From assembly GCA_028706295.1 (NCBI GenBank), contig JAQWBQ010000003.1, positions 34,441-98,440 of the forward strand: 64,000 nt of DNA, given 5' to 3'. Of the stretch, positions 6,478-10,329 are shown piece after piece. This stretch comes from Bacteroidales bacterium. GTDB lineage: Bacteria > Bacteroidota > Bacteroidia > Bacteroidales > FEN-979. Position numbers and translations under genes: made by a program. The notes below the pieces were generated by a model. It made no database searches. It was not told where the DNA came from and saw nothing but the letters and a program-made list of their open reading frames with translations. The number at the start of each line of letters is the position of its first letter. Within the stretch, counting starts at the first letter, position 1.

Positions 6478-6873
6478 ATGATCATTGGAATTGGCACCGA
6501 TATCATTGAAGTTGCCCGGATTGAAAAAGCGCTGAGCCGCGACATCGGGTTTCGGGATAAGATCTTTACGCCTGTCGAGATCGCCTATTGCGAATCGAAA
6601 AAGAATAAGTACCAGCATTATGCAGCACGTTTTTCGGCCAAAGAAGCCTTTCTTAAGGCTGTCGGTACGGGTTGGCGGTATGGGATCAGATTCGGCGAGG
6701 TCGGGACAAGAAATGACGAACTGGGAAAGCCATTTCTGGAAGTTAATGGAAAAGCAAAAGAATTGATCGACAGTTTGTCAGTTTCGAAAATCCATGTATC
6801 TTTATCGCATCTAAAAGAGACGGCCATTGCCATCGTAATTCTGGAAAGTGAACCCGATTCTTCCATTGCATAA
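6478..6873 (+). CDS. acpS: Holo-[acyl-carrier-protein] synthase (4'-phosphopantetheinyl transferase, AcpS type)
   Basis: The canonical AcpS N-terminus MIIGIGTDIIEV starts at ATG 6478, so the ORF-track start at 6406 is an extension. It also has ...RFSAKEAFLKA... and ...HVSLSH... and is ~131 aa, a typical length. Confidence 0.85.
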   Translation: MIIGIGTDIIEVARIEKALSRDIGFRDKIFTPVEIAYCESKKNKYQHYAARFSAKEAFLKAVGTGWRYGIRFGEVGTRNDELGKPFLEVNGKAKELIDSLSVSKIHVSLSHLKETAIAIVILESEPDSSIA

Positions 6874-6975
6874 TTTCAATCTTTCAGATCTTCCCACATC
6901 CGCGGAACCACACTCCGGCGTCCGCACCTATCCTTCTGCAGCCAATTCACCGTTTCACCTTAAAAGATAAAGCCT

Positions 6976-8679
6976 ATGTCGAACATTGGATCGTATGAAG
7001 AACGAATAAAGAATTTTGATTGGAATATCGCCGAAAAGGAACTTGATTACAAACCCGGCAACATTCTCAATATCGGATGGTATTGTTCCGACCGCATTTG
7101 CCAAATGGGCAAAGCTGATAAACCCGGATTGATCTGGGAAGGCTCAACCGGTATTACGAAAAAATATACCTATAACGACATACGCCTGGCAACTAATACT
7201 ATCGGACAGTTTTTAAGAGACCTCGGAGTCCGGCCCGAAGACCGTGTTTGCCTGTTTATGGATAAAATCCCGGAATTATATCTGGGATTTCTTGGGGTGT
7301 TAAAGATTGGCGCCATTGTTCAGCCGTTGTTTTCGGCGTTTGGTGATGAATCCTTGTTCATCAGGCTGGATAATGCTGAAACTACGGCCATTATCACGCA
7401 ACGCAAGCATGCCCCAAAAATTCGCAAGATCCTTGACAAGATGCCATATCTGAAACACATCATTATCGTTGATGCGGATCCCTTAAAACCACTTGGAGAA
7501 CGTGAAGTTGCCTTTGACCTGGAGGCTGCACCGAAAGTAGACCAATTCGAAATTCATCCCACCACTGCCGAATCTCCTTCAGTGCTCCATTATACTTCCG
7601 GGACCACAGGCCAACCCAAAGGGGTGAAGCATGTACATTATTCGCTGATATCACAGTACCTGACCTCAAAATGGGTTCTTGACCTCCGGGATTCTGATGT
7701 TTACTGGTGCACTGCCGACCCGGGCTGGGTTACCGGAACATCTTATGGAATCATCGGTTCCTTCAGTAATGGGGTTACCCAATGCGTGCTCGATGCCGGT
7801 TTCTCCGCCGAAAACTGGTACCGTTTTATCGAGAAATACAAAATTACCATGTGGTATTCGGCTCCTACCGCTATTCGCTCGCTGATGAAAGCCGGAGAGG
7901 AGGTCGTTAAAAAATTCGATCTCTCTTCGCTGCGCCACCTCGCTTCGGTCGGCGAACCGTTGAACAGCGAAGCTGTGATCTGGAGTGAACGGGTATTCGG
8001 TAAACCCTTTCTCGACACCTATTGGCAAACAGAAACCGGTTCCATCATGATCTCGAACTATCCAGGTATGAAAATCAAACCGGGCTCCATGGGAAAACCC
8101 TTCCCGGGAATTACCGCCACGGTCATCCATCCTGAGACCTATGAACCCTTCAATGAAACCGGTAAAATAGGGCTCATTGCACTGAAACCCGGCTGGCCTT
8201 CAATGATGCGTATGTACTGGCGGAATGAAGAGACCTATAAAAAGAAGTTTCAAAACGGATGGTACCTGCCCGGCGACCGTTCCAGCATCGATAACGAAGG
8301 CTATTTCTGGTTCGTGGGTCGGGATGACGATGTGATCAATACCGGAGGGCACCTTGTGAGCCCGTTCGAAGTGGAATCGGCACTTCTGGAACATCCTGCC
8401 GTGGCGGAATCAGCCGTGGTGGCCAAACCCGATTTTGTCAACATGGAAGTTGTCAAAGCCTTTGTCACCCTGAAACCCGGATTTGTCGCCAGCAAAGACC
8501 TGGACCTCGACATCATGAACTTTGTCCGTAAAAAGCTGTCTCCGCTCGCCATGCCGCAGGAGATTGAATTTATCGACACTCTTCCAAAAACCCGGAGCGG
8601 AAAAATCATGCGCAGAATCCTCCATGCAAAAGAATGGGGCGAAGAAATAGGAGATACCAGTACCCTGGAGAATGATTAA
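6976..8679 (+). CDS. acsA: AMP-forming acyl/acetyl-CoA synthetase, short AcsA type (adenylate-forming ligase)
   Basis: 567 aa, collinear with Bacillus subtilis AcsA as I recall it: YTSGTTGQPKG (A3), WVLDL..D.YWCTADPGWVTG, WYSAPTA, GEPLN, TYWQTETG, GDR...D.EGYFWF.GR.DDVI (A8), PKTRSGKIMRR (A10, carrying the regulatory acetyl-lysine). Confidence 0.8.
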   Translation: MSNIGSYEERIKNFDWNIAEKELDYKPGNILNIGWYCSDRICQMGKADKPGLIWEGSTGITKKYTYNDIRLATNTIGQFLRDLGVRPEDRVCLFMDKIPELYLGFLGVLKIGAIVQPLFSAFGDESLFIRLDNAETTAIITQRKHAPKIRKILDKMPYLKHIIIVDADPLKPLGEREVAFDLEAAPKVDQFEIHPTTAESPSVLHYTSGTTGQPKGVKHVHYSLISQYLTSKWVLDLRDSDVYWCTADPGWVTGTSYGIIGSFSNGVTQCVLDAGFSAENWYRFIEKYKITMWYSAPTAIRSLMKAGEEVVKKFDLSSLRHLASVGEPLNSEAVIWSERVFGKPFLDTYWQTETGSIMISNYPGMKIKPGSMGKPFPGITATVIHPETYEPFNETGKIGLIALKPGWPSMMRMYWRNEETYKKKFQNGWYLPGDRSSIDNEGYFWFVGRDDDVINTGGHLVSPFEVESALLEHPAVAESAVVAKPDFVNMEVVKAFVTLKPGFVASKDLDLDIMNFVRKKLSPLAMPQEIEFIDTLPKTRSGKIMRRILHAKEWGEEIGDTSTLEND

Positions 8680-8785
8680 TAGTGAAATAATAAATGGCGA
8701 AATCATGTCGCCGAAATGCGTAATAAAGAGATATTGTCAAGTTAATCCAACAATCAATCAGAAAACTTAAAAAGGAGACCAAACC

Positions 8786-9028
8786 ATGGACGAAATGAAA
8801 GAAGTCATCAAGAATTATGTGATCAGAGAATACGTCGAAGATGATACGGATGTCACTTACGATACCCCACTGATCTCCGGCGGCATCGTTGACAGTTTTT
8901 CAATGGTATCGTTAAAACGCTTTCTGGAAAATAAGTACCAGATCGCAATTCCCGATGATAAAGCAACACCCGAAGCATTCGATTCAGTAAATAAAATCTG
9001 TTTGCTGGTTAATGAATATATAAAATAG
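8786..9028 (+). CDS. Stand-alone carrier protein (ACP/PCP, DltC-like)
   Basis: 80 aa. The phosphopantetheine-attachment context is GGIVDSFSMVSL (compare DltC LLDSFGTVEL). It is acidic with a four-helix-sized length. An AAGGAG Shine-Dalgarno site sits at 8772-8777. Confidence 0.75.
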   Translation: MDEMKEVIKNYVIREYVEDDTDVTYDTPLISGGIVDSFSMVSLKRFLENKYQIAIPDDKATPEAFDSVNKICLLVNEYIK

Positions 9029-9036
9029 GAGGAATC

Positions 9037-10284
9037 ATGGCTTATACAGAAAAAACCCGCGGGATTTACAAGGAGATCCTCGGTGGATTGCAGCAGGCAG
9101 GTATTTTCAAACAGGAACGGTTCATTCATTCTGCACAGGCTGCCGACATTGAGGTTGAGTTCCCGGCCGGATCCTCCCTCAAAAAGGTCATTAACATTTG
9201 TGCCAACAACTATCTTGGATTGTCAAGCCATCCCGAAGTAGTTCAAGCAGCCCATGCAGGACTCGATTCCCATGGATATGGCATGTCGTCGGTGCGGTTT
9301 ATCTGCGGTACCCAGGACATTCATAAAAAACTGGAATCAATGGTCACCGAATTTCTCGGAACCGAAGACACCATCCTGTTCCCTTCCTGTATGGATGCCA
9401 ACGGAGGCGTCTTTGAAGCGGTTCTTACCAAAGATGACGTGATGATCTCGGACCGCCTTGTACATGCATCCATTATCGACGGAATAAGACTTTGCAGCGC
9501 CATGCACGACACCTTCAAGCATTCCGATATGGAGCATTTGGAGGAGAAGTTGCAGCTCCATAATGATAAAAGGCTGAAGATGGTAATTACCGATGGCGTT
9601 TTTTCCATGGATGGCGACACGGCCAAGCTGGATAAAATGGCCGAATTGTGCGAGAAATATGATGCCCTTCTTTTCTGTGATGACTCCCATGCCAGTGGTT
9701 TTATCGGGAAAACAGGTCGCGGAACCCATGAAAAATGCGGGGTTATGGGTAGAATGGATATCATAACCACCACCTTTGGTAAAGGACTTGGAGGCGCTTC
9801 AGGCGGATGTGTTTCAGGTCGCAGGGAGTTGGTGGAGATGTGCCGCCAAAAGGCTCGTCCATACCTGTTCTCCAATACAATTGCTCCCCCGGTTGTCGCC
9901 GGTGTCATAAAAGTTCTTGAAATTCTGTCAGCATCGACCGACCGGCGCGACAAACTGGAGAATAACACCATCTTTTGGCGTAAGGGGTTGACTGATGCGG
10001 GATTTATCCTTAAAGACGGTGATACCCCCATTGTGCCGGTTATGCTGTTCAACGCCAAACTTTCCCAGGATGTTTCGCGCGATCTGTATGAAGAGGGTGT
10101 TTATGCCATCGGATTTTTCTTCCCTGTGGTTCCTCAGGGACAGGCCAGGATCCGGACCCAGATCTCTGCCGGTCATGACATAATCCACCTTGAGAAAGCC
10201 CTCGACGCTTTCAGGAAAGTTGGTAAAAAATATGAGATCCTGGGTAAAACCAAACAGGAGATCATCGAACGCTACGGAATGTAA
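9037..10284 (+). CDS. Kbl-like alpha-oxoamine synthase (paralogue 2), carrier-protein-linked
   Basis: 415 aa with [55 protein letters not shown]-lysine motif TTFGKGLGG and RPYLFSN. It has a 17-aa C-terminal extension (ILGKTKQEIIERYGM). It starts 8 nt after the carrier-protein stop, and its AGGAGG Shine-Dalgarno site overlaps that stop codon. Confidence 0.8.
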   Translation: MAYTEKTRGIYKEILGGLQQAGIFKQERFIHSAQAADIEVEFPAGSSLKKVINICANNYLGLSSHPEVVQAAHAGLDSHGYGMSSVRFICGTQDIHKKLESMVTEFLGTEDTILFPSCMDANGGVFEAVLTKDDVMISDRLVHASIIDGIRLCSAMHDTFKHSDMEHLEEKLQLHNDKRLKMVITDGVFSMDGDTAKLDKMAELCEKYDALLFCDDSHASGFIGKTGRGTHEKCGVMGRMDIITTTFGKGLGGASGGCVSGRRELVEMCRQKARPYLFSNTIAPPVVAGVIKVLEILSASTDRRDKLENNTIFWRKGLTDAGFILKDGDTPIVPVMLFNAKLSQDVSRDLYEEGVYAIGFFFPVVPQGQARIRTQISAGHDIIHLEKALDAFRKVGKKYEILGKTKQEIIERYGM

Positions 10285-10290
10285 ACAGAT

Positions 10291-10329
10291 AGCGAAGTGG
10301 CAAAAAGGTGAAATTTTTGCCACTCCGCT
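10291..10329 (+). terminator. Long hairpin terminator closing the carrier protein/AOS operon
   Basis: AGCGAAGTGGCAAAAA-ggtgaaa-TTTTTGCCACTCCGCT: 15 of 16 positions pair. It begins 7 nt after the stop at 10284. Confidence 0.7.

Follow-up and report, generated by a model that had tools for sequence, protein, structure and literature searches.

What would a bacterium with a canonical glycine C-acetyltransferase (Kbl) gene do with a second Kbl-like gene, set behind genes for a phosphopantetheinyl transferase (PPTase), an adenylate-forming ligase and a small carrier protein? The question is raised by a stretch of 64,000 nt of Bacteroidales bacterium DNA (assembly GCA_028706295.1, contig JAQWBQ010000003.1, positions 34,441-98,440), referred to here as the window. 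The four genes are co-directional on the plus strand, and encode an AcpS-type PPTase, a ligase of the acetyl-CoA synthetase (Acs or AcsA) type, an 80-aa carrier, and an alpha-oxoamine synthase (AOS), which is called AOS2, the canonical Kbl being AOS1. A first-pass annotation of the sequence had read them as a set that primes a carrier, loads it and condenses the acyl group with an amino acid, and all four open reading frames (ORFs) are found where it had placed them.

The answer proposed here, to which we give an even chance, is that the cassette may perform a carrier-protein-dependent version of the Kbl reaction. AcpS would phosphopantetheinylate Ser37 of the carrier; the ligase would adenylate acetate (and possibly propionate too) to acetyl-AMP, and pass the acyl group to the pantetheine thiol of the carrier, instead of or in preference to CoA; and AOS2 would interconvert acetyl-S-carrier plus glycine with 2-amino-3-oxobutanoate plus holo-carrier. 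An insulated, private thioester pool of this kind would explain why a second Kbl stands beside canonical Kbl and L-threonine 3-dehydrogenase (Tdh). It is from the sequences and their arrangement that we infer the loading of the carrier by the ligase and the use of the carrier thioester by AOS2.

Linkage and conservation of the cassette

Two sets of loci were used. A scan of one genome per species with an alignment of the carrier provided 80 genome loci (the carrier-selected set), and a further 80 metagenome loci were picked by AOS2 alone (the AOS2-selected set), neighbours being counted where the contig had room. The carrier is present in at least 539 species genomes in the scan, which belong to Bacteroidota (Prolixibacteraceae, Draconibacterium, Rikenellaceae), Aminicenantes/Saccharicenans, Zixibacteria, Delongbacteria, Ignavibacteriales and others. 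The hosts are metagenome-assembled genomes (MAGs) from anoxic sediments, peat, digesters and stratified lakes, and a search for cultured hosts among the members of the sequence clusters returned MAG or metagenome sources only.

The order AcpS-ligase-carrier-AOS2 is kept in the 80 carrier-selected loci wherever the contig is long enough, with AcpS upstream of the ligase in 50 of them. When loci are selected by AOS2, the carrier is directly upstream of it in 69/69 cases and the ligase upstream of the pair in 48/48, and AcpS is found upstream in 38/47. The ligase, carrier and AOS2 therefore form an obligate triad, usually with its own PPTase. This is the synteny that the first-pass annotation had proposed as a check, and the carrier, PPTase, adenylate-forming ligase and Kbl-derived condensing enzyme do recur together as one conserved unit. 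The unit is in fact larger than annotated, since it includes the canonical Kbl gene at 2430-3626 and the acetate channel gene at 10352-10909: the usual order in other contigs is Kbl(398)-AcpS(125)-ligase(567)-ACP(80/81)-AOS2(415)-YaaH(185), where the numbers are protein lengths and ACP is the acyl carrier protein.

The genes are closely spaced, with median gaps of 12 nt between acpS and the ligase, 70 nt between the ligase and the carrier, and 13 nt between the carrier and AOS2 (156 loci). In the window, the stop codon of the carrier is 8 nt from the start of AOS2, and the junction, TAGGAGGAATCATG, contains GGAGG within 9029-9036, in agreement with the Shine-Dalgarno sequence noted in the first pass. 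The gap between ligase and carrier genes is here about 106 nt, and has a small hairpin inside it.

Across the 80 carrier-selected loci the identities are 74-99% for the ligase, 76-99% for AOS2 and 71-99% for the carrier; those of AcpS are mostly 51-98%, with two loci at 30-31%. The flanking Pat-like and porin-like genes are just 45-63% identical between phyla. The GC content of the loci ranges from 0.34 to 0.68, and the conservation of the core proteins is therefore a result of selection and not of recent transfer. Recent horizontal transfer was considered as the source of the high identity and rejected, on this GC range and on the grouping of identities by phylum.

The carrier, the ligase and AOS2

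With 103 bits, the acpS product clears the cutoff (59.8) of TIGR00516, the equivalog for holo-ACP synthase; it also matches PF01648, and it is presumed to prime the carrier, whose Ser37 is the presumed site of phosphopantetheine attachment. The co-encoded AcpS is circumstantial support for phosphopantetheinylation of the carrier. Residues 29-51 of the carrier do not vary among 24 sequences, which is what a hub in contact with several partners would be expected to show. In the AlphaFold2 model (predicted local distance difference test score, pLDDT, 80) the carrier is predicted to fold as carrier proteins do, into a bundle of helices over about 80 aa, and Ser37, the presumed attachment site, is at the N-terminus of helix 2 (residues 40-51, after D36-S37). 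Foldseek searches with the model gave TM scores of about 0.8 to PigG and PltL, and its structural neighbours are PigG, PltL, DltC, CcbZ and the aminoacyl carriers of amino-acid:carrier-protein ligases. The nearest structures are thus stand-alone carriers loaded by free-standing adenylating enzymes, and by sequence and predicted fold the carrier appears closest to the stand-alone type II peptidyl or aminoacyl carriers.

The carrier had been described as resembling DltC more than AcpP of fatty acid synthesis. This is roughly right, but the carrier belongs to a subfamily without a curated assignment: it scores 25 bits against the NCBIfam DltC model, whose cutoff is 68, and is also below the cutoffs for AcpP (23.5 vs 70) and for ACP_for_OlsHI (59 vs 130), the best NCBIfam match. 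No Pfam match (PF00550) was obtained at E <= 0.001. A link to OlsHI was considered and dropped, because the score is below cutoff and OlsH is published as needing neither ACP nor CoA.

The best solved relative of the ligase is a 572-aa acetyl-CoA synthetase, 9g79, with a collinear match of 557 bits, and its assignment in the first pass to the AcsA type holds; it is below the cutoff of TIGR02188 (497 bits, cutoff 725). When mapped onto S. enterica Acs, the ligase retains the acetate pocket, with V310 and T311 in GWVTG, V386 in SVGEP, and the Trp gate W414 in DTYWQTETG. GWVTG and SVGEP are invariant in 63/63 cassette ligases, and the W414 position is always Trp except for Phe in three. Judged by what is established of Acs structure and function, an acetate-sized pocket that is conserved throughout the cassette ligases would mean that a long-chain substrate is excluded.

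The departure from Acs is in motif A8, where R526 of Acs is replaced by Leu (L460 in the window) in 63/63 cassette ligases, all of which have GHL (GHLV, against GERV in 9g79). The absence of the R191/R194 loop is uninformative, as the short AcsA 9g79 lacks it as well. The A8 Arg of Acs contacts the acyl-adenylate phosphate and stabilises the thioester-forming conformation (PMC10455477). Its replacement in M. thermautotrophicus Acs reduces kcat 130- to 326-fold, and the Ala variant is not saturable with CoA; in S. enterica Acs the effect of replacement is smaller (PMC10455477).

It is worth looking at distant relatives of the ligase, in which the A8 motif is GHLV in P0301, P0302 and P0303, GHLI in P0300 and P0312, and retains Arg in the other ten examined. 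P0301 and P0303 are each directly beside a carrier gene, in Dlt-like sets with an MBOAT protein and an SGNH/DltD-like protein, and what follows the Arg-retaining P0298 is a gene for a membrane protein and no carrier gene. A DltX-like peptide of 38 aa is encoded as well in the P0301 locus (L167), whose carrier matches that of the window at E = 8e-10. Ligases of the Dlt-like sets have the motif NT(A/G)GHLVSP in common with the cassette ligases and Phe at the position of the Trp gate; at 46% identity to the window ligase they are Acs-like and not DltA-like. The Acs-like ligase subfamily is thus paired with carriers in two unrelated pathway types, an independent argument in favour of the ligase loading the carrier.

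Two further observations concern these relatives. Dlt-like sets with an SGNH/DltD-like protein, MBOAT and a 77-79-aa carrier occur in L167 (129-4630), L168 and L172 (5001-10524), with the DltX-like peptide as an extra in L167 and L168, and they may be a carrier-dependent system for O-acylation with a short acyl group, perhaps acetyl. In L173 (1893-4657) and L174 (244-3976), GHLI Acs-like ligase genes overlap the start of genes for 2-oxoacid dehydrogenase E1 alpha/beta.

AOS2 has the fold expected of the family (PF00155, 186 bits) and keeps the pyridoxal phosphate (PLP) lysine, the D-x-x-H contacts to PLP and the carboxylate-binding Arg, with TTFGKGLGG, DDSHA and ARIR conserved; CANNYLGL is retained too, and no catalytic motif is lost. 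Compared with solved structures, it scores 461 bits with Kbl, 216 with serine palmitoyltransferase (SPT, 3a2b), 181 with 7u7h and 168 with cysteate-C-fatty acyltransferase (28eh). It reaches 221-300 bits with SPT models whose cutoffs are 500-670 (300 vs 640 for the Bacteroidota-type model), and it retains 129/162 (80%) of the positions invariant in Kbl. For comparison, AOS1 passes NF005394 (618 bits, cutoff 460) and TIGR01822 (616 bits), and its scores are 545 bits for Kbl 3tqx, the best match, 253 for SPT, 199 for Alistipes 7u7h and 173 for cysteate-C-fatty acyltransferase.

AOS2 nevertheless differs from canonical Kbl. In an alignment of 104 synthases from the loci with C. necator Kbl (7bxp), identity among AOS2 orthologues is 76-99%, and it drops to 50-58% when they are compared with AOS1 or C. 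necator Kbl (55% for AOS2 and the latter). The AOS2 orthologues are monophyletic in 60/60 neighbour-joining bootstraps, on a stem of 0.15, with AOS1 and C. necator Kbl outside; the phylogeny proposed in the first pass thus places AOS2 outside the orthologous Kbl clade. The monophyly holds once the L081 sequence (8260-9528, a high-GC MAG), which at first intruded into the clade's surroundings as a foreign tip, is counted as an AOS2 that is apparently frameshifted: the first and last thirds of the gene are in frame but the middle part is not, due to either an assembly error or a pseudogene. The sister of the AOS2 clade is the second Kbl found downstream of AOS2 in Delongbacteria. About ten substitutions are invariant and specific to AOS2, among them SSAF to PSCM in the active-site loop, and two new His. 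LNHAS becomes LVHAS next to the PLP-stacking His, and the changes lining the active site are F to M at 119 and N to V at 142. Two stretches of AOS2 are without a counterpart in Kbl, a conserved insertion (DIEVEFPxG, residues about 38-46) and a C-terminal tail (ILGKTKQEII..YGM, 403-415), and these are candidates for a carrier-docking surface.

Neighbouring genes and other features

The features of the window are listed in Table 1.

Table 1. Positions of the cassette and of associated features in the window.
Feature	Position	Strand	Basis or content
AOS1, canonical glycine C-acetyltransferase (Kbl)	2430..3626	+	NF005394, TIGR01822, PDB 3tqx match
Two ORFs, 641 aa (3623-5548) and 245 aa (5612-6349)	3623..6349	+	no family match
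acpS, AcpS-type phosphopantetheinyl transferase, ATG at 6478	6478..6873	+	TIGR00516, PF01648
Acs/AcsA-type adenylate-forming ligase, 567 aa	6976..8679	+	AMP-binding and AMP-binding_C domains, NF003313
80-aa carrier protein, type II peptidyl carrier protein/DltC-like	8786..9028	+	carries GGIVDSFSMVSL
Carrier-AOS2 junction, 8 nt, with GGAGG	9029..9036	+	sequence
AOS2, Kbl-like alpha-oxoamine synthase, 415 aa, TTFGKGLGG	9037..10284	+	TIGR01822, NF005394
Stem-loop after AOS2	10291..10329	+	16 pairs, -25.5 kcal/mol
AceTr/SatP (YaaH-family) acetate channel	10352..10909	+	NF038013
452-aa secreted beta-rich porin-like protein	14624..15982	-	sequence features; without Pfam/NCBIfam match
Pat-type protein acetyltransferase	16128..18860	+	TIGR02717 and Pat GNAT match
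SDR-type L-threonine 3-dehydrogenase	20481..21476	-	match to TDH structure 2yy7

In Bacteroidota the canonical Kbl is the usual first gene of the cassette, and AOS1 immediately precedes acpS in many loci, L001 and L004 among them. The 641-aa and 245-aa ORFs that separate them here are found in the window, L007 and L008 only, and are outside the conserved unit; the longer has an N-terminus resembling a signal peptide, and no Pfam or NCBIfam match was found for either. A different arrangement is seen in L045, L055, L057, L058 and L061 (MAGs of Delongbacteria and similar ones), where a second Kbl-like gene, 59-61% identical to AOS2, is directly downstream of AOS2 and not upstream of acpS, and where no AcpS was detected upstream of the cassette. 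In L045, L057 and L058, whose contigs reach far enough, this gene is followed by genes for a kinase-like protein of about 1250 aa and for Hsp20-like and Lon-like proteins.

At the other end, the stem-loop that closes the locus was found essentially as first annotated, with one pair more than the 15 bp given, and is exceptionally stable (z = -6.5; 0/200 shuffles as stable). It is probably a terminator or a processing/stability element. It belongs to this lineage only, and elsewhere AOS2 and the following gene are 27 nt apart or overlap. Scanning for sigma-70 promoters and terminators gave counts equal to those of shuffled sequence, the long hairpin alone being exceptional. An Rfam scan of the window and five distant loci found no riboswitch linked to the cassette; cobalamin riboswitches in two Aminicenantes loci, L053 (15784-15977, minus strand) and L046 (16126-16243, minus strand), are about 6 kb from the cassette, upstream of a gene for a protein of about 644 aa, and are apparently unlinked to it.

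The theme of the neighbours is threonine, glycine and acetate metabolism. The acetate channel (NF038013, 275 bits, cutoff 50) is a frequent last gene of the cassette: it follows AOS2 in many loci of Bacteroidota, in some of Aminicenantes and, among the AOS2-selected loci with room, in 21/68. The Pat-type protein, of 900 aa, has a region resembling ADP-forming acyl-CoA synthetases (TIGR02717, 542 bits over residues 20-465) and a C-terminal GNAT domain (Pat GNAT match over 748-892), and its gene accompanies the cassette in 20 loci, which come from Bacteroidota, Zixibacteria and Aminicenantes. Pat-type acetyltransferases are a known type of regulator of Acs. The short-chain dehydrogenase/reductase (SDR) matches the TDH structure 2yy7 with 437 bits; Tdh homologues are found within 8 kb of the cassette in 14/80 carrier-selected loci, and directly upstream of it in L086, an Ignavibacteriales MAG. 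No lipid or tailoring genes recur beside the core. The presence of Tdh, Kbl, the acetate channel and Pat points to core threonine, glycine and acetate metabolism and not to a pyrazine-type secondary metabolite. Of the products suggested in the first pass, a small aminoketone would thus stand in the form of 2-amino-3-oxobutanoate, and a pyrazine-type compound would not.

The gene of the 452-aa protein occurs in 30/80 carrier-selected loci, of Bacteroidota and of Aminicenantes (the latter at 45-48% identity), and no Pfam or NCBIfam match was found. The term porin reflects sequence features only, its single-sequence model having a pLDDT of 31, and this secreted beta-rich protein may be an outer-membrane channel. 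Between it and the gene of a protein of the type IX secretion system (T9SS) with a PKD domain, there is an ORF6N/Rha-like phage regulatory domain protein (14034-14558, minus strand).

A word on taxonomy is needed. L007 (SACF01000001.1) is 99% identical to the window across the cassette, yet its label reads Alphaproteobacteria bacterium. Since T9SS Por_Secre_tail proteins and a Bacteroidota-type EF-G2 are encoded in the window, this is apparently a mistake of binning or taxonomy. The same caution applies to the other labels outside Bacteroidota, on L014, L038 and MAGs assigned to 'Eubacteriales'.

Competing explanations and known systems

For the direction of the proposed reaction, we favour condensation over cleavage. 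The Kbl equilibrium lies towards cleavage, and acetylation of the carrier pool at the cost of ATP -> AMP + PPi would push it towards 2-amino-3-oxobutanoate, which could then be reduced to threonine by the linked Tdh or decarboxylated to aminoacetone. The acetate channel would supply the acetate, and the Pat-type acetyltransferase would throttle the ligase. We put forward only tentatively this ATP-driven reversal of Kbl, in which AOS2 would condense glycine with acetate-derived acetyl units from a private acetylated carrier pool insulated from the acetyl-CoA/CoA ratio.

The competitor that survives best, which we nevertheless consider rather unlikely, takes both enzymes at face value: the ligase would be a conventional acetyl-CoA synthetase and AOS2 would be a second Kbl isozyme that depends on CoA, in an operon for acetate, threonine and glycine, and the carrier would be regulatory or would serve an unrelated pathway. 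Several facts weigh in its favour or otherwise count against carrier dependence. The ligase passes the acetate--CoA ligase equivalog NF003313, if marginally (749 bits, cutoff 729), and it keeps R584, which binds the 3'-phosphate of CoA, and the acetylatable lysine K609 in motif A10, the target of Pat; both residues are conserved in the 63 cassette ligases, where LPKTRSGKIMRR is invariant. Because of these features the ligase could still make acetyl-CoA. Likewise, because AOS2 passes both Kbl equivalogs (TIGR01822, 562 bits, cutoff 493; NF005394, 559 bits, cutoff 460), its sequence makes an ordinary CoA-dependent isozyme possible. Pat and AceTr, which are classical partners of Acs, are nearby, and the ligase and carrier genes of the window are separated by the gap and hairpin described above. 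Nor is the A8 substitution a sufficient sign: a strict rule that Arg to Leu means carrier use was tried and fails, since GHLI-type ligases are coupled to 2-oxoacid dehydrogenase E1 genes, and P0302, with GHLV, is in a polysaccharide cluster with no carrier in view. The neighbours are frequent and not universal (Tdh in 14/80 loci, AceTr in 21/68), and it is from neighbours alone that we infer direction and end product. All the genomes are MAGs, some with visibly wrong taxonomic labels, and the AOS trees were made by neighbour joining with limited outgroup sampling.

What two conventional enzymes leave unexplained is the carrier itself, which in every case stands between ligase and AOS2, in tight coupling with the latter, and which is near-invariant across phyla. 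They also leave unexplained an acpS gene that travels with the set, a separate AOS2 clade with conserved extra segments, and the loss of Arg526 in every one of the 63 ligases.

A second alternative accepts the carrier and runs the module backwards. Tdh would oxidise threonine, AOS2 would cleave 2-amino-3-oxobutanoate with the thiol of the holo-carrier, and the ligase would convert acetyl-S-carrier + AMP + PPi to acetate + ATP, with acetate leaving through AceTr; in this way anaerobic fermenters of amino acids would conserve energy at the substrate level. The cleavage-favoured equilibrium, the linkage of Tdh and AceTr, and the origin of the hosts in anoxic sediments, peat, digesters and stratified lakes all fit, and in Syntrophus aciditrophicus an AMP-forming acetyl-CoA synthetase reportedly runs backwards for ATP synthesis. 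However, a canonical Kbl for CoA-dependent cleavage is already adjacent, Pat-type control is known for restraining the acetate-activating direction, and the sequences give no sign of direction, and we judge this alternative to be unlikely.

Thirdly, the architecture might be as proposed but carry propionate, glycolate, lactate or a similar short acyl group in place of acetate, the product being another 2-amino-3-oxo acid or a small aminoketone for a cofactor, a signal or a pyrazine-type metabolite. The invariant changes at 119 and 142 in the lining of the AOS2 active site could be read in this way, as could the Phe at the Trp gate in a few ligases and in the Dlt-like relatives. It is distinctly unlikely, given that nearly all cassette ligases keep the four residues of the acetate pocket, an acetate channel is linked to the module, no conserved tailoring enzymes are next to the core, and secondary metabolism does not usually show such strong conservation across phyla.

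Finally, the sphingoid or sulfonolipid base suggested in the first pass, made from long-chain acyl-ACP and serine or cysteate, has in its favour a similar sphingolipid triad in Rhodobacteria and the SulA of Alistipes, which reportedly uses acyl-ACP, but is highly improbable and was rejected, in view of the acetate-sized ligase pocket with its Trp gate, the similarity of AOS2 to Kbl (461 bits, with 80% of Kbl-invariant residues kept) over SPT (216 bits, and 300 vs a cutoff of 640 for the Bacteroidota-type model), 7u7h (181) and cysteate-C-fatty acyltransferase (168), and its Kbl-type CANNYLGL and ARIR motifs.

That triad is nonetheless a precedent for a carrier-fed Kbl and among the closest known systems. 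The SPT/AcpR/AasR system, which starts sphingolipid synthesis in Rhodobacteria (Caulobacter CC_1162, CC_1163, CC_1165), likewise consists of a linked AOS, dedicated small ACP and ANL ligase; the ligase is restricted to its cognate ACP and does not acylate CoA, and acyl-ACP is the preferred substrate of the AOS (PMC9386255). It differs in having a serine palmitoyltransferase, a long-chain acyl-ACP synthetase and a lipid-base product, whereas the cassette has a Kbl-derived, glycine-type AOS and an Acs-type ligase, includes an AcpS gene, and has Tdh, Kbl, AceTr and Pat as neighbours.

With threonine cleavage by Tdh and Kbl (E. coli Kbl 1fc4; C. necator Kbl 7bxp), the cassette shares the catalytic residues of AOS2 and the linkage of Tdh and Kbl. 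Canonical Kbl uses free acetyl-CoA, whereas AOS2 forms a separate clade, has the insertion, the C-terminal tail and the changes in the active-site loop, and comes in every case behind a carrier and an Acs-type ligase. The cassette ligase, for its part, has the same acetate pocket as the short AcsA 9g79 under Pat/AcuA control, the SGKIMRR acetylatable lysine motif and a Pat-type gene nearby; unlike that enzyme, its A8 Arg is invariantly Leu, a carrier gene always follows, and the acceptor is proposed to be the carrier pantetheine and not CoA.

In the Dlt system (DltA/DltC/DltB/DltD), too, a small DltC-like carrier, open to priming by a PPTase of the AcpS type, is loaded by a stand-alone adenylating enzyme. 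The sets in L167 and L172, which are Dlt-type with an Acs-like ligase, bring it closer, through a carrier related to that of the window (L167, with the E value given above) and ligases that share GHLVSP. Dlt, however, uses D-alanine and an extracellular MBOAT acceptor enzyme, where the cassette has a cytoplasmic PLP-dependent condensing enzyme. AOS domains of the SxtA and PigH type condense short acyl-ACP thioesters with an amino acid, as is proposed for the cassette. They are domains of multidomain secondary-metabolite synthases that use arginine or serine, whereas the proteins of the cassette are free-standing and apparently belong to core metabolism.

Literature searches found no description of a carrier-fed Kbl-type synthase or of an Acs-type acetate:carrier ligase. 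The first-pass view that the combination is undescribed is thus upheld, with the qualification that the logic of AOS, dedicated ACP and ligase is already known from sphingolipid initiation, and it is the Kbl/Acs carrier version that is apparently undescribed. Public annotations are generic ('glycine C-acetyltransferase', 'acetate--CoA ligase', 'acyl carrier protein'), and these names hide the linkage of ligase, carrier and AOS2. The proteins are small and soluble, and the hypothesis is directly open to in vitro work.

Kbl and Acs are textbook CoA-dependent enzymes, and carrier-dependent forms of them would be an unrecognised part of central acetate, glycine and threonine metabolism in several phyla of uncultured anaerobes, across which the cassette is conserved to a degree almost like that of translation factors. 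If the proposal is true, there would be two new specificities, an Acs-type acetate:carrier ligase and a carrier-dependent Kbl, and the occurrence of GHLV Acs-like ligases in Dlt-like MBOAT systems suggests a broader, undescribed subfamily of short-acyl:carrier-protein ligases. An ATP-driven reverse Kbl, if that too is true, would form with Tdh a non-canonical route from glycine and acetate to threonine in many uncultured anaerobes, or alternatively would be a controlled source of aminoacetone.

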